Shown here piece by piece: positions 17,832 through 26,083 of a stretch of DNA of 29,996 nucleotides (position 1 is the first letter of the stretch; each line of letters opens with the position of its first letter). Both the position numbers and the translations under genes were made by a program. Source of the DNA: a virus. Lineage: Duplodnaviria; Caudoviricetes. Below the pieces are notes generated by a model, which did not search any database, was not told where the DNA came from, and saw only the letters and a program-made list of their open reading frames with translations. The stretch covers positions 1 to 29,996 of the IMG/VR virus record IMGVR_UViG_3300025018_000424; one strand, given 5' to 3'.

Positions 17832-20165
17832 TCAGCGGTTGGGGTTCAGCAGCGAGTTTAGTTCGTCGACGAGCGCGGGATCGGGTGCCGGCTCAGGCTT
17901 CATCGCGTGCTCGAGCCGCGCCTTCGCGATCGCGATATGGCGCGCGCCGTCGTCGCCATCCCCCAGCTCGACGCCGACGAAACGAAACCCGCTGAGCAGC
18001 GCGGCGACGCCGGTCGAGCCCGAGCCCGCGAACGGGTCGAGCACAACACCGCCCGGCGGTGTGATCAGTTTGATCAGCCACGTCATGAGCGCGATTGACT
18101 TCACGGTCGGATGGGAGTTGCGCGCGCCGCCGGTTCGACCTGCGCCCGCGCGCGGGTTCTTCGTGCCGGCGCTGTCATCCTTGCGCCCGGTCGCCTCGCC
18201 GCCGGTCTTAGGCTCGAGCCCGGCTTCGGCGAGCCCGGCGTCTTTCTCGCGTCGGCTCGGCTTCGCTACGTAATAGAAGCGCGACGGAACTCCGCTGTCT
18301 TCGTATGACGTCGACCCGTCTGTCATAGCGAAACCGCCCTTCACGTTTTCGTTTGACATCGATCGCGCACGCGATCCCGTTTGCGTCCTTTTCGTCGACT
18401 TGCTCGGCGGCACGGACGCGTCAAGCATCGCGGCGGTGGCTTCGTCAAACGTGACGTTTGCGGGCCAGCGCCCAACGTTCGGATCGAAGCCGACTTCTTT
18501 CGACGTGCCAATCCGACACGCGTCAATGTTCAGCCCGCCGGTACCGTGCGTTAGAACATTCGCCGCGACCGTGCCCTTGAAAGGCTTTCTGACGAGCCAC
18601 CAATCCTCACAGGCTGGCTTCAGTGCCGTTCCCCAGCCGTCCCATGCGGCGGCTTCGGGTGAGCCTGCGGTTGTGCCCGGCGTGTGGATCGTCTGTCCAG
18701 CTTGTGACGTCTCTTCGCCGTGTCCGCGGCACGCCACGCCCGAGCGAATATACGCGCAGTTCGTGTTAGACGATCCGCCGGGGATCCGATCGGCGCCCAG
18801 TGCTTTGTCGATCGCCTTCGACACGGACATCGATTTGGGGAATCCAGTATTTCCGGTGACGAACACAGATCCGCGGTAGCGCGCGACCCATCGCCCGCTC
18901 GGAACAGTCGGACACCAGACCGCGCCGTCACTCGGCACGGTTGACGCCCATCGCTTACGATGCGATCCGCGCTGCACTTCGGTCGAGTCGACCATACACC
19001 AGCTGATCGCGCTTTTGCTGACGTTTTCGGACGTGCGAAACCCGAGACGGAAGCACAGTGTCTGAAACCACGCGCGCACCGCCGGCCGCTTCTGATACCA
19101 CGCGCCTGACGTATCGCTGTGCCGTGATCCGTCGCCGTCGACGAGTGCCTCGAACAGCGCGCGCGCTTCGTCAATCGGGAGCCACGCGAGCCACTCGGGC
19201 GGCGTCGGCTTGTCGCCGGCTAGCAGCGTGCGCAGCCACGTCGACCACGCACCGACTTTCAGGTACCACTGCACAGAATCGCGCGGCGTGCCGTCGTAGT
19301 TGTCGCGCGTTCGTCGGTATTCGGAAAACGCGATCCCGAGGCGCGCTAGCAGCGCGCGAATACGATCGGCATCGACGCCTTCGTTCTGATAGATCGACAC
19401 AGCTTCGACGTCTCGGTGGAAGTGCCCCTCTGTAACAACCCATCCAATCAGCGATGCAAGATCGACGCTACCGAGCGATGCGCGCACTTCGGCGCCGCGC
19501 GCAGCTAGCGGCAGAACCCATCCGACCGTGCCGGGCGTGTTCTCGATCAGAACGTCGGCAGGCATCGACGACAGCGCGCTATCTGTTACCGTGTGCTTCC
19601 AGCGCCCGCGTTTGGCGTATGCGTGTACCGTGTGCCCAGGCGTCAGTACCTGCTCGGTCGATCGCGTCTTTACGCGGATCATATCACCAGCGTAGGGATA
19701 GACGGATACGCCCTGCAGCGGCGCGAGCGACGCGCGCCCAACGGCGTCAACCTCGACGACGGGATCGCCCGTTCTGATTTCATTGCACTTGCGCCAGCCG
19801 TTGGCTGTTAGGATCTCGGTCCCGAGCGGAACGCAGCCGAACAGATGCGAGACTCGATCGCGAATCTCGAATCCCGCATGCTCGAGCGCCATCGCGGTCC
19901 AATGCGACGTGCGAGGTAGCGCCCACACGAGCGCGTGACCGCCGGGCTTCAGCACGCGGAACGCGCCCGCGAGCTGATCGGCGAGCCACGCGATCCACGC
20001 ATCGCGCCCGCCCTTGTCCGAATCCCACGACTTGCCCATGAAACCGATCCCGGCGGGCGGGTCGGTAATGATTGCGTCGACGGACTCGGGCGGCAGCTTG
20101 TCGGCGATCGCTTTCGCTTCGCCCTGGAATAGCACCGCGCGCGGCGTGAGTAGGATCGGCTTCAT
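17832..20165 (-). CDS. Amino (N6A/N4C) DNA methyltransferase, beta class, interrupted by an intein
   Basis: N-terminal 'IITDPPAG' (motif IV variant) and 'RVLKPGG', then 'GFPKS', 'GWGTALKPA.E', 'GRWPAN', 'HPTVK...L..LI.L.TPPGG.VLDPFAGSGSTG' (motif I at the C-terminus). Confidence 0.9.
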   Translation of the reverse strand: MKPILLTPRAVLFQGEAKAIADKLPPESVDAIITDPPAGIGFMGKSWDSDKGGRDAWIAWLADQLAGAFRVLKPGGHALVWALPRTSHWTAMALEHAGFEIRDRVSHLFGCVPLGTEILTANGWRKCNEIRTGDPVVEVDAVGRASLAPLQGVSVYPYAGDMIRVKTRSTEQVLTPGHTVHAYAKRGRWKHTVTDSALSSMPADVLIENTPGTVGWVLPLAARGAEVRASLGSVDLASLIGWVVTEGHFHRDVEAVSIYQNEGVDADRIRALLARLGIAFSEYRRTRDNYDGTPRDSVQWYLKVGAWSTWLRTLLAGDKPTPPEWLAWLPIDEARALFEALVDGDGSRHSDTSGAWYQKRPAVRAWFQTLCFRLGFRTSENVSKSAISWCMVDSTEVQRGSHRKRWASTVPSDGAVWCPTVPSGRWVARYRGSVFVTGNTGFPKSMSVSKAIDKALGADRIPGGSSNTNCAYIRSGVACRGHGEETSQAGQTIHTPGTTAGSPEAAAWDGWGTALKPACEDWWLVRKPFKGTVAANVLTHGTGGLNIDACRIGTSKEVGFDPNVGRWPANVTFDEATAAMLDASVPPSKSTKRTQTGSRARSMSNENVKGGFAMTDGSTSYEDSGVPSRFYYVAKPSRREKDAGLAEAGLEPKTGGEATGRKDDSAGTKNPRAGAGRTGGARNSHPTVKSIALMTWLIKLITPPGGVVLDPFAGSGSTGVAALLSGFRFVGVELGDGDDGARHIAIAKARLEHAMKPEPAPDPALVDELNSLLNPNR
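18849..19835 (-). mobile_element. Intein (329 aa) with LAGLIDADG homing endonuclease domain
   Basis: Begins HLFG|CVPLGTEILTANGW (block A) and has block B 'LTPGHTV', LAGLIDADG-like 'LIGWVVTEG' and 'ALVDGDG', and block F 'VWCPTVP'. It ends VFVTGN|T. Removing it restores the methylase motif HLFG-TGFPKS. Confidence 0.92.
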
Positions 20166-20210
20166 GACTTGGATTTCAACGCGTGAGACCGTCGACGCGG
20201 TCTATCGATA

Positions 20211-21020
20211 TCAGAAGCACTTCTTACACACACCGCACCGAATCGACGCCGACTTGGATACCAGATCGACCGGGCAAACCATGCGCTTGTGATCGGGGCT
20301 CAGGCTATCGAACCACGATCCCTTACCGATGCCGCGCAGCGAGTAGTCAGGGAAAATAACCGATCCCGAAGGTAGGTCGGCGGGCACGTAGCCCGAGACC
20401 GTCATGTAGCACAGGCGCAGATCCTTTAACGACGCGTGTACCAGGCGTTCAAACTTCGCATCACCGTAGTTGTCCGCGTCGCACGACAGGTTGACTGCTA
20501 GGTTTGCTGTCTGCGTCAGCAGCCACACGTGATCAAACGATCGCGTGTACAGCCAATGATTGACCATAGGAGACGCGTCGCACACCGTGACAATCCACGC
20601 CGCGTAATGCGCGTTGAATATGTCGCCCGACACGTGCCAGCGGAAGCCGCCGATCGCGTGGTTGCGAATCCAGTCACCGACGACATGCGCCCAGGCGAGC
20701 TGTTCGTCGCCACTTAGCGCGAGGATCTCACGGATCGTCGTCGAGTTATGCCGGTACATAGCAGCCAGATCGCGCTCAGCCTTCTCGAGTTCATGAACGT
20801 AGCACGACGCGCGACACGTCGGCGTCGACCCCGGGCAGTCTTCGACGTGCACGAGTGAAAACGCGTTCGGCTTCGGTCTGTCAAAGGTACCGTTGCCAGC
20901 CGTGATCTTCTGGTTTCCGTCGAAGTACAGAGCGCGTCCGGCGTGCTCGAGCTTCGTGGTCACGAACGCCGTCGACGCCGCGGTTGACTTGCGGCCTAGT
21001 TGGATTGGTTTGCGGGTCAT
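20211..21020 (-). CDS. GP88-like protein (Cys cluster, radical-SAM-like fold suspected)
   Basis: ATG at 21020 overlaps the upstream TGA. Motifs: 'CPGSTPTCRASCY', 'FRWHVSGDIF', 'WLYTRS', 'NL..NLSCD', and C-terminal 'CP.......C..C..C'. Confidence 0.7.
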   Translation of the reverse strand: MTRKPIQLGRKSTAASTAFVTTKLEHAGRALYFDGNQKITAGNGTFDRPKPNAFSLVHVEDCPGSTPTCRASCYVHELEKAERDLAAMYRHNSTTIREILALSGDEQLAWAHVVGDWIRNHAIGGFRWHVSGDIFNAHYAAWIVTVCDASPMVNHWLYTRSFDHVWLLTQTANLAVNLSCDADNYGDAKFERLVHASLKDLRLCYMTVSGYVPADLPSGSVIFPDYSLRGIGKGSWFDSLSPDHKRMVCPVDLVSKSASIRCGVCKKCF

Positions 21021-21301
21021 ACGTCCGCCGCCCACGCGAGATCGAACGACCGCACGAGCGCCGCGCGCAAGCCGCCCGCGGGAACCGCGAGCGCGAGCGC
21101 CTCGATATATGCGAGGTCTTCGCCGACCAGCTCGGCGTACGTTTCGACCACGTCTTCGGTTCCCGCCTCGTGCGCGTTGCGCAGGGCGATCACGTTCGTA
21201 ACGAAGTGATCGCGCCGCCGGATGCGCTCGGCTTCGACGTCGCGCTTGCGTTCAGCCTCGGTGAAGTCAAGAGCCGCACGGCGCGTTGATAAATCGTCCA
21301 T
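21017..21301 (-). CDS. Hypothetical protein
   Basis: 94 aa with a GGAGG RBS at 21317-21313 and ATGA coupling to the downstream gene. Confidence 0.65.
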   Translation of the reverse strand: MDDLSTRRAALDFTEAERKRDVEAERIRRRDHFVTNVIALRNAHEAGTEDVVETYAELVGEDLAYIEALALAVPAGGLRAALVRSFDLAWAADV

Positions 21302-21307
21302 TGTTTT

Positions 21308-21376
21308 TTAATCCTCCGAAGGTTCCCAGGGAATAAGGTTGCCCGCGCTGTCGTAAACAGGAGACGCGCCTTTATA
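21308..21376 (-). repeat. Orphan second copy of the DNA polymerase 3' end (YKGASPVYDSAGNLIPWEPSED*)
   Basis: Diverged direct repeat of 21997-21926 (YKDAKPVYDSAGNLVPWEPGSDD*). Over the first 19 codons, 44/57 nt and 16/19 aa are identical. It has no start codon of its own and ends in its own TAA. Confidence 0.9.
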
Positions 21377-21378
21377 CC

Positions 21379-21933
21379 CTATAACGCACGATCGATCGGG
21401 CACGGTCTACGAAGATACTCAAGTATCGCGTTTGCGTGGGCGACAACGTCTGCCGCGTTATCCCCCATCTGACCGATTCGCACGTTGCACGGGTGGCACA
21501 GCACACCGCGAACGGCGCCGGTGACGTGATCGTGGTCTGTAGACCATCCGATCGCGCTGCCGGGATCAGAGGCGCTGCACAGCGCACAGCACCTGCCCTG
21601 CTGATCGAACATGGCGTCCCACTGCTCTGGCGTGATACCGAACTTCCGCATGAGGCCGTACCGCCGCATATACTCACGGTTCCGCTGCCTCTGATCGTCA
21701 GTCATCTTATTAGCGCGCCACTCGCGCGCCATTTTGTTTTTGTGCGCGCGCTGCTCCGGCGACCACGCCCTTCGGATGGCGCGCTGAGCTGCGAGATCGC
21801 GTGCTTTCTTCTCGGGGTCGGATCGGCGACGGCGCTTCGATGCGATCTTAGCAGCCTGCTGATCCTTCGTCCGCCGCGCATAAGCCTCGCGAGCCCTCGC
21901 GTTTTTCGCGAGTCGACGATCGTCGTCAGTCAT
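21379..21933 (-). CDS. Endonuclease VII family (His-Me finger) endonuclease, probable free-standing homing endonuclease
   Basis: Basic helical N-terminus, then 'KFGIT...W..M...Q.G.C.ALC', 'DHDHVTGAVRGVLCHPCN..IG...DN...AILEYL'. The start overlaps the polymerase stop by 8 nt. Confidence 0.9.
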   Translation of the reverse strand: MTDDDRRLAKNARAREAYARRTKDQQAAKIASKRRRRSDPEKKARDLAAQRAIRRAWSPEQRAHKNKMAREWRANKMTDDQRQRNREYMRRYGLMRKFGITPEQWDAMFDQQGRCCALCSASDPGSAIGWSTDHDHVTGAVRGVLCHPCNVRIGQMGDNAADVVAHANAILEYLRRPCPIDRAL

Positions 21934-24187
21934 CCGATCCCGGCTCCCACGGAACTAGGTTCCCGGCGCTGTCGTACACAGGCTTAGCGTCTTTATACAG
22001 ACGGCGGATCAGAGCAGGTTCAGCCTTGATCGTGACGTCGGGCGTCACCTTCTGCATCTCGCTGAGCATTATCTCCGTTACACGCATGGCGGCGGCGTGC
22101 GATCTATCGACCGGGTGCTCGCAAACCGCTTCGTCATGAATGAACCCGATCGGGCGCGATCCGTACAGCGCGTCGCCGGGGCGGGCTAGGTAGCACTCGC
22201 GCGTGACGGCGTAAAATGCGCGCTTCGCGCCGATGGCGGCGAGGCTCGAGAAATAACCGTTCGCTGCTTGCGTAACTGAGTCAACCTGCCGCACGACGCC
22301 GCTGACAAAGTGTGTGATCGTGCCGTAGTTCTCGACCTGATGTTTGATGAAGTCGAAATACGCCTTCATCTCGGACCAGCGACAGAACCACGCTTCACGG
22401 ATCGTGATCGCGGCTTCAACGCACGCCTTACATACCGGCGACTGCGGGCGATCGTACCACTCGGTGATTTTCTCTTCGCCGCACGCGGGGCGCCCGCCGA
22501 TCAGCAAGCAGAACCGAACGCCTTTGTACGCCTTGCCGTTCGGCGCCTTCGTCGTCATGCCGGGTGCCTTGCGGTTCGTAATGACGAACTTGGGCGGTCC
22601 CATCATGCCGCCGAATCCGAAGTTGCCCCACTTCGCAGCCTGCCGATAGTCGGCTAGCTGCTTGTCGCCGCCGAGCAGGAGCGCGCGGAATTCGTCATAG
22701 GTGCGACCACACAGATCGGCGCCCAACACGGCGTGCGGATCCATCGGTACGCCGGTTGAGTCTTTTGAGTTCAGCACGTCGGCTAGCTTCGAGTAACCGA
22801 TCTGCCAGATACAGATCTGCCCAAGTGTACAAAGCTCGACCTGCCCAAAATCGACCGAGCTAAGAACGGTACCTGGGCGCGCAACAACGCAGTCGCGCAC
22901 CGCGCCTTTACGCGGCATAGTCTGCACAATGCCCGCGTAGCTGGCGCGCTCGTTTACCAGCGGCACGTTCGGGCGCAGCGGTAAGCCGTCGCGTAAAGCG
23001 GGGATGTATGTGCTGACGATCTTAGCTTGCTCGCCCCATTCGCCGAAGTCGTAAAGCACGTCATCACCCGAGTCAATCAGCACGTCGCGCGCGGTCGCAA
23101 TGCCGCCCTTGTCGGTGCGCGGTAGTACCGGACCGATCGCCGCGAGATCGTATCCCGTGCCGCCGCAGGCGGGATCGTTGACTGGGCTGCCGCTCTTCGG
23201 GCTCAGCACCTTGCCGATCAAGTGCTCGCCGGTCTTCGGGTGTTTGGTGTGCTGACAGTACGGGCACGGCGCGAGCTTGCCGACGCCGTACGCCTCGACG
23301 ACGCGCTTTTTAAGCGCGGCTAGATCCTTCGTTCCAGCTTTTTTGTCATCTGGGCCGCGGATCAGTCCAACATCCTCGAACGCCTTCGCGCCAGCTGCGA
23401 TTGTTGGCTCGACGATGCCGGCGAGCGCCTCGACGGCTTCTTGATCGATACCGAATCCCCAGCACGCGCCAAGGTGCAGCGCGATCGACGCGCGCGCGAT
23501 GTCCGCCATTGCGTGTAAGTTATGTGCACGGCGTCGCTCGGCGGTTTGCAGCCCGGCGATCCCCGCGTTGCGCCCCAGGTGACCGCACTGCACGAGCGCG
23601 GCGATCAGCGTGTGGTTGGAGTCGTCGACCGGGTACTTGCGCGCTTCTTCGGGCCACTGCGCGATCGGCACGCCGTCAAGCAGCGCGTATGACTTCCGCC
23701 ACGCGTCGGCATCCTTGCTGCCCTGATAGTTAAACGTCGTATCGCAAACAGAGTACAGCGAGTAGTAGCCGGTCTGTTTGCCTTCGGCGTTGCGTAGCTT
23801 CTGACCCGTGCGCGGATCGTACCCGAGACACCCGAGCTGAATCGCGTCGAGCGCCTCGGCGATCAAGACGTCGAAGACCTCGCCGCGATCGTACTTCGCG
23901 AAGATCAGCTCGAGGATCTCGACCGGGTCGTGACCGTTGCGCGCGAGATCGTGCGCCATCACGAACATATCGAAAGCGCCGTTCGCCGTCACGATGACGG
24001 GACCGGGATTCATCAGGCGAATGAACTCTTCGCGCGCCTCGGCTTTGTCGAGCAGCCGACCTTTGAGCGCGAGGCTAGAGACCGACGCGCACACGAGCGG
24101 CGGCACGAACTTCGGGCGAGTCAGCCACGTCTCGGTATCGAACGCGAAACCGATCGCAGGTAAGCGATCCAGTAGTTCAGTCTTCAT
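21926..24187 (-). CDS. polA: Family A DNA polymerase with 3'-5' exonuclease domain
   Basis: ExoI 'FDTET', ExoII 'NGAFD', ExoIII 'YPVDD', motif A 'DFGQVEL', motif B 'RQAAKWGNFG' and motif C 'FIHDEA'. Confidence 0.93.
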   Translation of the reverse strand: MKTELLDRLPAIGFAFDTETWLTRPKFVPPLVCASVSSLALKGRLLDKAEAREEFIRLMNPGPVIVTANGAFDMFVMAHDLARNGHDPVEILELIFAKYDRGEVFDVLIAEALDAIQLGCLGYDPRTGQKLRNAEGKQTGYYSLYSVCDTTFNYQGSKDADAWRKSYALLDGVPIAQWPEEARKYPVDDSNHTLIAALVQCGHLGRNAGIAGLQTAERRRAHNLHAMADIARASIALHLGACWGFGIDQEAVEALAGIVEPTIAAGAKAFEDVGLIRGPDDKKAGTKDLAALKKRVVEAYGVGKLAPCPYCQHTKHPKTGEHLIGKVLSPKSGSPVNDPACGGTGYDLAAIGPVLPRTDKGGIATARDVLIDSGDDVLYDFGEWGEQAKIVSTYIPALRDGLPLRPNVPLVNERASYAGIVQTMPRKGAVRDCVVARPGTVLSSVDFGQVELCTLGQICIWQIGYSKLADVLNSKDSTGVPMDPHAVLGADLCGRTYDEFRALLLGGDKQLADYRQAAKWGNFGFGGMMGPPKFVITNRKAPGMTTKAPNGKAYKGVRFCLLIGGRPACGEEKITEWYDRPQSPVCKACVEAAITIREAWFCRWSEMKAYFDFIKHQVENYGTITHFVSGVVRQVDSVTQAANGYFSSLAAIGAKRAFYAVTRECYLARPGDALYGSRPIGFIHDEAVCEHPVDRSHAAAMRVTEIMLSEMQKVTPDVTIKAEPALIRRLYKDAKPVYDSAGNLVPWEPGSDD

Positions 24188-24960
24188 GGCACCCCTAGGA
24201 TGCGATCGAGTTGCGCGTCGATCGTTTCGCCGTTCGTCCAGATCCCTTCAGACGAATGCTGGTTAGAACCGTTGCCGCCATTCGCCTGAATGTTTGCCAG
24301 GTGTTTGAACGGCAACCATGTTGCGTCCGATGCCTCACACACGATAACCTGACCGCGACGCGATCGACACCACGCACCGAGGTGCGCGAAGTCAATCTTC
24401 TTTGAAGAACAGATGTACGCATGGCCTGCGCGCTGATATGGCGGGTCGACGTACCACGTCGCAGTGATTGGCGGCGCGCTGGCGTAGGACCCTTCGACGA
24501 TCGTCCAGTGCCTGATGAACTGCATTTGATAAACGATTCGATCGCGCACTCGATCTGTCCAGCCAACAAACATACCATCATTGCGTTTGCGTAACTGTGC
24601 CTGGGATATTCCGCGCGTCATGTTCGGTCGTGGTGCTACACGATCGAACCAGAATCCGACAAGCCATCGCGCTTCCTGTGGAACCCATGACGGCAGCTCG
24701 TCGACGTGCTCGATGTCGACGGGAATGCAGGCGACCTCAGCGGGGGGCGCGGTGATTAGGTAGTGCCAGATTCCTGCCACCACGGGGTATTTGTCGTAAA
24801 GTACAACGTTGCGATCGTAGTGTCGAAGCGAGTATCCCGCGGCTCCTGCGAACGGCTCGATAATCGTGTCGTGCGTCGGTGCAGGATACAGCGGCGCCGC
24901 GCGCCACTTCGCGCCGTAGTAGTGCCAGAATGGGCGCAGAAAAGGCGGCCTAGTTTGCAT
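24184..24960 (-). CDS. Dam-like (alpha class) N6-adenine DNA methyltransferase
   Basis: 'YYGAKW', 'EPFAGAAG' (motif I) and 'YVDPPY' (motif IV) occur in alpha-class order. The stop overlaps the polymerase ATG. Confidence 0.85.
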   Translation of the reverse strand: MQTRPPFLRPFWHYYGAKWRAAPLYPAPTHDTIIEPFAGAAGYSLRHYDRNVVLYDKYPVVAGIWHYLITAPPAEVACIPVDIEHVDELPSWVPQEARWLVGFWFDRVAPRPNMTRGISQAQLRKRNDGMFVGWTDRVRDRIVYQMQFIRHWTIVEGSYASAPPITATWYVDPPYQRAGHAYICSSKKIDFAHLGAWCRSRRGQVIVCEASDATWLPFKHLANIQANGGNGSNQHSSEGIWTNGETIDAQLDRILGVP

Positions 24961-25189
24961 CGCTGCCGCCCGTCAACTTCGCGCGAACGCGCTCGACGAT
25001 CTCGACCGCGTGCGGGTCGAGCTCGACGTCGACGACCGGTTCAAGCTGTTCGGGCTCGGCGACTGGCTGCGCGTGCTCGAGCCGTAGTGGACCGGTCCAT
25101 CCACACCGACGACACTGACCCATGCGCCCGAGCCCGCCGAACACGGGCACAAGAACAGACAGCAGACAGCCGGGACACGGTCGAGTCAT
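24950..25189 (-). CDS. Small zinc-ribbon protein
   Basis: From ATG 25189: MTRPCPGC...CRRCGW (two CxxC), 79 aa, with ATGA coupling to an upstream mini-ORF. Confidence 0.55.
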   Translation of the reverse strand: MTRPCPGCLLSVLVPVFGGLGRMGQCRRCGWTGPLRLEHAQPVAEPEQLEPVVDVELDPHAVEIVERVRAKLTGGSDAN

Positions 25190-25293
25190 GCGCGCCACTC
25201 GTCTCGTGGCTCGGCACCGCCTAACCACTGCTGGATCGCGTCGACGATGCTCAGCCAGAACAGCCGAAGGAACTCGGCGACGGAGGCGATCAC
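25186..25293 (-). CDS. 35-aa amphipathic peptide (not in ORF track)
   Basis: The GTG-started ORF MIASVAEFLRLFWLSIVDAIQQWLGGAEPRDEWRA* overlaps the upstream stop (GTGA) and the downstream start (ATGA), filling the gap exactly. Confidence 0.55.
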   Translation of the reverse strand: MIASVAEFLRLFWLSIVDAIQQWLGGAEPRDEWRA

Positions 25294-25889
25294 GCCGGAT
25301 CCCTGCGCGGCATAACAATCATAGATAGCGTGCCAACGCCAGCGCCAGCATCGATCGTGAATAGAGATCCCGCATCGCAGCCCTGAAAGCGCGCAACTAA
25401 ACCAGTGTCGCGCTTATTATAATCAAACTCCAGAGCCGCCCGGGCCGCGCGCAACAAGTATTTTGGATTGAACGCCACGGGCGTGTCTTCAGCAGATCCA
25501 CACCAGTCGATTAACGCTCTCCACGCTGGGAAGTCGTGATCCACAATTGATGCGTAGATGGCATCAGACCCGATCGTGATGCGACCGCTACGCAGATTCA
25601 GATCAACAAGTTCGGATTGCTGGATGCGCGTCGCCTTGACTGTAGTCATCACTCGCTTCAGGTCGCACGCTGCAAACAGCACCGACGCACCCCGATCGGA
25701 GTCGGGGATCTCAGCGGCAACGTGCGCATGCGCTAGCGTGTGACCGTCCGTGGCAACAATATTGATCGCTTGCTTGTCTGCGTCGGATTCGAACCAAACA
25801 CTCATCAGGTGCTGTCTGGTTTGATCGCACGAAGCAAAAGGCAGCACAGCCTTGAGCGATGCGTATAGATTTGATCTAGTGATATACAC
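25290..25889 (-). CDS. DNA polymerase III beta (sliding clamp)-like protein, truncated
   Basis: 'FAS.D.TR..L..V', 'VATDGH.LA', 'FP.WR.LI', 'AFNPKYL' and 'MIVMP.R' mirror DnaN central and C-terminal motifs. It is only 199 aa and has a GGAGG RBS. Confidence 0.75.
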   Translation of the reverse strand: MYITRSNLYASLKAVLPFASCDQTRQHLMSVWFESDADKQAINIVATDGHTLAHAHVAAEIPDSDRGASVLFAACDLKRVMTTVKATRIQQSELVDLNLRSGRITIGSDAIYASIVDHDFPAWRALIDWCGSAEDTPVAFNPKYLLRAARAALEFDYNKRDTGLVARFQGCDAGSLFTIDAGAGVGTLSMIVMPRRDPA

Positions 25890-26083
25890 TATTGACCTCC
25901 CCGCAACCTGCGTTCTATGCGGCGACGCTTCGCCTGGTTACTGCGCCGGTTATATGCCGGCGCGGGCGGGCCAACCTGCCATCGGCGCTTGGACATCTGC
26001 GCGCGGGCGAACATCATTGCTATCGCGGTCGACATCGCGACCGCTGCGCGCGCCTTCTTCGGGATATGCGTGTTTGTGCTCAT
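25889..26083 (-). CDS. Small basic hypothetical protein
   Basis: 64 aa, Arg-rich, with TAGTG coupling to the clamp-like gene. Confidence 0.55.
   Translation of the reverse strand: MSTNTHIPKKARAAVAMSTAIAMMFARAQMSKRRWQVGPPAPAYNRRSNQAKRRRIERRLRGGQ

Follow-up and report, generated by a model that had tools for sequence, protein, structure and literature searches.

The family A DNA polymerase gene of an uncultured groundwater phage appears to have exchanged its own 3' end for a diverged copy, which is followed immediately by an Endo VII-motif nuclease gene. Judged against a nuclease-free relative, the two together make up a net insertion of 621 bp, and the native polymerase end has been displaced to the far side of the nuclease gene, where it lies as an orphan of 23 codons. 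The observed basis is fourfold: an empty allele exists, the orphan is its native end, the new tail shows excess divergence, and the nuclease motif is intact. Our preferred reading, to which we assign a probability of roughly 0.7, is a splice-free homing unit of foreign origin in the polymerase 3' end, with homing and cutting by the nuclease as predicted activities.

A polymerase gene followed by a second copy of its end

The window, that is, the whole stretch of DNA that was analysed, is an entire 29,996-nt contig of a tailed phage (Caudoviricetes), with tape measure, baseplate J and DUF3383 genes on the plus strand and a replication block on the minus strand; sheath-like genes are present as well (Table 1). 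The runs listed for it are aquifer and groundwater metagenomes, with no RNA run among them. In a collection of cultured phages the best relative of the polymerase reached 36% and the nuclease had no match above 60%; neither a scan of viral contigs with a single protein, nor two DNA-pattern scans, nor the genome collection yielded a close relative.

Table 1. Features of the polymerase 3' region, in positions of the window.
Feature	Coordinates	Strand	Remarks
94-aa gene, function unassigned	21017..21301	-	88% identical in L093
Orphan, the displaced native polymerase tail, 23 codons with stop	21308..21376	-	No start codon, and no stops or indels within it
Right junction	21370..21378	-	GG after the nuclease stop, then 8-nt GTATAAAG
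Endo VII-motif (DHHRN-type) endonuclease, 184 aa	21379..21933	-	Basic N-terminal half, C-terminal nuclease domain
Replacement polymerase tail, 23 aa plus stop (24 codons)	21926..21997	-	In frame; nuclease start codon within its last 8 nt
5' edge of diverged tract	21998..22010	-	L-I-R-R-L versus L-M-R-R-L in the empty allele; predicted nuclease target region
Family A DNA polymerase, 753 aa	21926..24187	-	Host gene, intact ORF, replacement tail at its end

The polymerase (PHROG 17, E 1e-21) yields an AlphaFold model with a mean pLDDT of 89 that matches Pol I structures (E 1.7e-16). Its tail is kept across 119 homologues (K in 119, L in 113, W in 104, G in 103 and P in 96), and residues 731-750 are ordered in the model at a pLDDT of 85-87. 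Loss of the tail would presumably harm the enzyme, so that an insertion here would need to bring a replacement.

The upstream tail and the orphan form the top direct repeat in 19000-26000, at a spacing of 621, and their peptide alignment scores 102, whereas 30 shuffles averaged 39 and reached at most 50. A recount returned exactly the figures of an earlier, sequence-only reading of this DNA, namely 44/57 nt and 16/19 aa in common, with 8 of the 13 mismatches at synonymous third positions, and the coordinates that it gave for both copies were correct. The nuclease ORF overlaps the polymerase stop by 8 nt. Inside the orphan, 11 nt before the 94-aa gene, lies a GGAGG (21317-21313) that had been proposed as the ribosome-binding site of that gene; since the same GGAGG occurs in the nuclease-free relative, 8 nt before the next start, it can be taken as the native site. 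Searches of Pfam and PHROG assigned the 94-aa gene to no family, and no sigma-70 promoter or minus-strand terminator was detected in 21000-22300.

The sequence-only reading had raised the possibility that two strains were joined into one chimeric assembly. We compared the window with four of the ten listed runs (X1-X4, all from one year and one habitat) at the level of contigs. A single 11.6-kb contig of X1, which may be the source of the window, spans everything with 0 differences; the left junction is crossed by pieces of X2 (21422-22073) and X4 (21566-22354) and the right junction by a piece of X3 (20883-21472), again with 0 differences, and no assembly joint is listed in any of the four. 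The contigs L091 and L092 match the window exactly. It is true that X1 alone covers both junctions in a single listed contig and that X1 and L092 may stem from the same material as the window. The nuclease is nevertheless joined to both tail copies in contigs of other runs, and we reject a chimera as a practically negligible explanation, largely refuted by X1-X4.

The orphan resembles the polymerase end of a nuclease-free relative

One contig, L093, provides the only empty allele seen as DNA. Compared in blocks, it shares 81-93% identity with the window; its polymerase (P0135, 746 aa, a member of the same cluster) is 92% identical to that of the window, and the nuclease is missing from the 10.6 kb of it that were searched, which makes the nuclease gene optional between close relatives. 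At this locus the polymerase ends in an orphan-type tail, down to the last three residues, and the 94-aa gene starts 3 nt after the stop. This is the arrangement foreseen for a cassette-free relative, with a YKGA-type tail that runs directly into the 94-aa gene and lies closer to the orphan.

The tail of L093 agrees with the orphan at 59/69 nt and encodes the same residue in 21/23 codons, including the final S-E-D-stop, compared with 48/69 nt and 16/23 codons for the upstream copy. Taking as background the 195 codons that precede the tail (56/585 mismatches between window and L093), the orphan, with 10/69 mismatches, is no different from the rest of the gene (p=0.2). The upstream copy together with the five codons before it carries 20/72 mismatches (p=4e-5), and synonymous codon differences occur in 11/18 codons there versus 39/177 in the background, a significant excess in keeping with the foreign-like upstream tail that had been predicted. 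Moreover, a second related polymerase (P0002, 88% identical) shares the orphan residues G, S and I. Because the L093 tail is nearer to the orphan, the upstream copy is excessively diverged and P0002 has the orphan residues, we take the orphan to be the native end and the upstream copy to be the newcomer. A simple target-site duplication, against which the sequence-only reading had already argued, followed by neutral decay in the orphan is ruled out, as the orphan is the better conserved of the two copies relative to L093. Among the three-way sites over 57 nt, 8 unite the orphan with the empty allele, 3 unite the upstream copy with it, and 4 set both copies against it; these last would fit either a duplication origin or conversion between the copies.

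The 8-nt GTATAAAG is common to the left junction (21998-21991), the right junction and the empty allele. Upstream of the duplicated part, 6 mismatches fall within 22010-22000 (5 codons; Fisher p=0.002 against 56/585); the codons there appear to have been replaced, not displaced, and we predict that this cluster marks the likely target region of the nuclease. The unit of about 620 bp first proposed thus stands as a net gain of 621 bp, but its diverged tract starts about four codons earlier than supposed, at 22010. An ancestral insertion site reading TGG-TAT-AAA (W-Y-K) is ruled out: the empty allele has TTG TAT AAA (L-Y-K), and the closest homologues have W in 0/12 and L in 6/12, W being the consensus of the wider family (76/119). 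Of the GG behind the nuclease stop, one G fits the last base of the Leu codon and belongs to GTATAAAG. Compared as decayed polymerase DNA, the 30 nt before the orphan, which encode the nuclease tail P-C-P-I-D-R-A-L, gave p=0.049 in one of six tests.

The nuclease carries an intact motif in its C-terminal part

The nuclease matches PF02945 over residues 96-163 of 184 (E 3.5e-19), which places the motif in its C-terminal part, and C116, C119, D133, H134, H136, R142, C146, C149 and N150 are invariant among 11 aligned homologues. The C-D, D-R and R-N spacings of 17, 9 and 8 equal those of C84, D101, R110 and N118 in the homing endonuclease F-CphI, whose essential residues are thus present at the same spacing, and two CxxC pairs are found as well. 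The C-terminal position fits the layout of the endonuclease clade in PMC6083498, which describes one characterised homing member of the DHHRN family. With 86,164 representatives at E 0.001 the motif family is large, yet this nuclease forms a cluster of 1 member with no close relative, the next-best representative being about 51% identical, and no donor lineage was found for the new tail and nuclease.

Only the motif region aligns to T4 gp49 (residues 10-73). A Holliday junction resolvase of the T4 Endo VII type was rejected on the grounds that the motif is not N-terminal, that there is no full-length likeness and that the L093 locus lacks the gene. A separate RuvC-like candidate, a lead only, is common to the window phage and L093. 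Upstream of the polymerase, at 24960-24184, the window also holds a 258-aa methylase-like gene that L093 does not have.

Mosaic alleles suggest movement, and a second phage shares the layout

Four related sequences are known here as proteins only: the outgroup P0002, two polymerase fragments (P0132 and P0133) and a variant of the 94-aa protein (P0137). Both fragments are empty-like at 4 upstream sites and, from -4 on, window-like at 4 sites of the tail (Fisher p=0.029 and 0.048); the Ile at -4 goes along with the new tail in each. One site of P0133, at -38, is discordant in being window-like, and the tail of P0132 is of a third kind. This joining of the new tail to upstream residues of the empty allele suggests that the unit has moved, while mosaics also arise by ordinary phage recombination. 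P0137, for its part, sides with the window at 4/4 two-way sites through residue 11 and is empty-like at 4/6 beyond that point. If P0133 and P0137 share a contig, to which their equal source and length point, the pair would outline a conversion tract centred on the insert.

The layout itself is rare. From 107 polymerase loci fetched (a few contigs twice), 67 gave a tail match; both loci with a double tail belong to this phage, and it was absent from all 61 others that had a tail match and at least 800 nt downstream. A complementary screen started from Endo VII genes and took the best 80 of the 588 loci that a search of one eighth of the viral collection had confirmed; of these 80, 76 were scored and 4 were left out for short flanks. 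Judged on the best 25 of 77 rows, at least one clear further case exists among the 76 loci: in L181 the same layout occurs on a DUF3310 gene with a different Endo VII gene, and the stranded tail is fused in frame to the nuclease. L133 was ambiguous, L176 and L162 were discarded as psbA/psbD paralogue matches, and the remaining high rows of those 25 were low-complexity off-frame matches. Another locus (L069) carries a further Endo VII gene inside a related polymerase, which it splits at about residue 427.

A model for the inserted unit and its alternatives

Under the preferred reading, a related phage would have carried the nuclease gene just behind its polymerase, and recombination would have brought the donor's tail and nuclease into this lineage, the left exchange being homologous, between codons -25 and -4, and the right one probably running through the 8-nt repeat. 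During a mixed infection the nuclease would cut an empty allele near the M-R-R-L-Y-K-G-A-S codons; repair would then rely on upstream polymerase sequence for homology on the left and on the orphan together with the 94-aa gene for homology on the right, and the unit would be copied in. Translation of the nuclease would be coupled to the polymerase stop. We propose that the occupied allele escapes cutting because the left half of the target is recoded and the native right half is severed from its 5' context, and that the orphan has likely been retained on account of its recent origin, of the ribosome-binding site of the next gene that lies in it and of its use as a homology arm. The mosaic alleles and the L181 layout suggest recurrence and favour homing; the split polymerase of L069 and the Endo VII-motif genes published from phage polymerase introns (PMC6083498) count on the same side. 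According to Barth et al. (PMC10448857), active homing can often not be demonstrated from sequence alone.

The same homing unit might instead be of local origin, if insertion of the nuclease had duplicated the native tail locally and rapid recoding had then let the upstream copy escape cutting, with no foreign donor involved. The four sites at which both copies differ from the empty allele, including Tyr at +8 (Phe in L093 and P0002), speak for such an origin, as does the new tail being nearer to the orphan than to more distant family members. Against this, the working copy is further than the dead one from the empty allele (14 versus 9 mismatches over 57 nt), the excess includes 5 synonymous sites over codons 12-19 while the orphan shows no decay, and an acceleration of about threefold over 72 nt would be needed; we consider a local origin quite unlikely. 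It is likewise unlikely, in our estimate, that the locus records a one-off recombination accident in which the nuclease does not home here, being a passenger that cuts elsewhere, a restriction-type (Hpy99I-like) enzyme or a resolvase. Resolvases and restriction enzymes share the Endo VII motif (PMC6083498), and the best solved-structure match of the nuclease is indeed Hpy99I; the methylase-like gene is, like the nuclease, absent from L093, and the double tail is rare among polymerase loci. Yet the motif is C-terminal, unlike that of T4 Endo VII, the methylase-like gene nearest to the nuclease lies 2.25 kb away, beyond the polymerase, and the phage has its separate RuvC-like candidate, also present in L093 (a lead only). 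Mismatches cluster at the junction, moreover, and the mosaic alleles and L181 suggest that the event is a recurrent one.

An intron is a further alternative: Endo VII-motif genes do reside in polymerase introns of LUZ24, Berlin and YpP-G (PMC6083498), and a register exists in which U precedes the insert and G closes it. However, an Rfam search over 20500-24500 at E up to 5 returned no intron family and one chance miRNA match, and the conserved in-frame tail would be superfluous in an intron. With 619/621 nt coding, the insert leaves no space for a ribozyme core. A group I intron was rejected on the Rfam and coding results, and an intron of any kind is very improbable.

Relation to known mobile nucleases

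The nucleases of fungal mitochondrial mobile ORFs are of the LAGLIDADG or GIY-YIG type. The Allomyces atp6 element that the sequence-only reading named as an analogue proved to be a real one: PMC3630166 describes fungal mitochondrial genes in which a mobile endonuclease ORF brings in a foreign C-terminus, for example atp6 of Allomyces macrogynus, atp6, atp9, cox2 and nad3 of Glomus sp., atp9 of Rhizopus and cox2 of Mortierella. As in these hybrids, the phage locus combines an in-frame inserted C-terminus, an endonuclease ORF and a displaced native C-terminus without splicing, and the downstream copy is the one nearer to a relative's uninterrupted gene (PMC3630166). It differs from them in its tailed-phage host, its DNA polymerase target gene and its Endo VII-motif nuclease, and mobility of the Allomyces element was shown biochemically (same source), while the phage unit is known from its sequence. 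Because host and nuclease lineage differ, we regard the unit as working like the fungal hybrids without being a member of them.

Among phage elements, gene 5.3 of phage T3 offers a counterpart, a free-standing nuclease gene that comes right after a family A polymerase gene. According to work by Bonocora and Shub in 2009, this HNH-family nuclease reportedly lies behind a T7-like polymerase gene and cuts that gene in related phages, and is said to come with no duplicated polymerase tail.

The unit is also like the DHHRN homing endonucleases, which include F-CphI of cyanophage S-PM2 and members borne by polymerase introns, in its catalytic residues, their spacing and the motif in the C-terminal half, in being an optional gene in or beside a conserved core gene, and in having the polymerase as target gene (PMC6083498). 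In those cases F-CphI relies on an intron for the protection of its own target, and introns house the polymerase members, whereas here a recoded tail would protect the target without any intron (same source). The seg and mob nucleases of T4-like phages offer a further parallel through intronless homing (mobE, for instance, splits nrdA of Aeh1): they cut the neighbouring gene of nuclease-free phages and co-convert its flanks, and here too an optional nuclease overlaps the upstream stop (PMC2988022). They sit between genes or split one; the text of PMC2988022 contains no word with the stem 'duplicat', and no displaced native tail is described in it. Searches of open-access literature, limited to main texts, gave no phage case of the tail-duplication layout, and neither did the consulted parts of PMC7468147, PMC3984707 and PMC10448857.

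By this comparison the locus is no new class of system; it is a case unusually well supported by a matched empty allele, with activity predicted. A mechanism described from fungal mitochondria would extend through it to phages, and to the DHHRN nucleases, a family that has received little study. Since an empty and an occupied allele are available as a matched pair, the mechanism can be tested using synthetic DNA and a single small protein, which could also yield a new sequence-specific nuclease. Gene callers do not see the layout, since the host gene appears complete and the orphan lacks a start codon, and it is therefore probably under-counted. The locus also means that phage marker genes can have 3' ends whose history differs from that of the remaining gene.

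In the broadest interpretation, which we hold at even odds, Endo VII-motif phage nucleases would time and again invade conserved genes at their last codons, bringing along a recoded ending that the nuclease does not cut; this route would need no splicing and would stand next to introns, inteins and intergenic homing. The present unit would be actively homing among groundwater phages and swapping polymerase tails across lineages, and L093 would offer a ready substrate in which the target region spans about 30 bp.

Endo VII genes beside gene ends and within a related polymerase

The layout found in the window, a replacement gene tail joined to an Endo VII-motif nuclease gene with the native tail stranded downstream, recurs on a different gene in another phage, at L181, a locus from our Endo VII screen. 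Here the final ~30 residues of the Endo VII gene form a second, in-frame copy of the tail of the preceding DUF3310 protein. At L133, from the same screen, the downstream small-protein copy seems more intact than the upstream one, and the two may represent paralogues or a replacement on the 5' side. The polymerase fragment P0132, which mixes upstream residues of the empty allele with window-type tail residues, has a tail that begins as window-type and finishes in a third kind of ending; it may be a hybrid, or it may represent the donor state (upstream-type tail and nuclease, no orphan tail).

At L069, another phage locus, a different Endo VII gene divides a related family A polymerase into two ORFs; on the window's protein the break would fall close to residue 427. 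Rfam gave no intron match there at gathering score, and the arrangement resembles the split of Aeh1 nrdA by mobE.

Comparison with the empty-allele relative

In L093, the related contig lacking the nuclease, the methylase frame stays open throughout the nested HNH ORF, whereas the window's methylase has an intein-like insert in its place, at nearly the same position. L093 also lacks the window's 258-aa gene, which we label methylase-like from its motifs; it had no match in Pfam, and its opening codons (ATG CAA ACT) echo those of the polymerase (ATG AAA ACT). The shared 160-aa gene has an Atlas lead, to a cluster in which 12% of the members carry RuvC, and may encode a resolvase of the window phage.

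Positions of the features compared
Feature	Location	Remarks
DUF3310 gene, then Endo VII gene	L181:1212-1839	
Two similar small-protein copies flanking an Endo VII gene	L133:~1050-2020	
Endo VII gene	L069:4410-4958	different from window's; within related family A polymerase
DNA methylase ORF	L093:6702-8939	
HNH ORF, 208 aa	L093:7345-7971	entirely within methylase ORF, other frame
Counterpart of L093 methylase	window 20165-17832	intein-like insert, LAGLIDADG_3 match
Methylase-like gene, 258 aa	window 24960-24184	precisely at polymerase start
160-aa gene	window 16847-16365	common to window and L093, 86%
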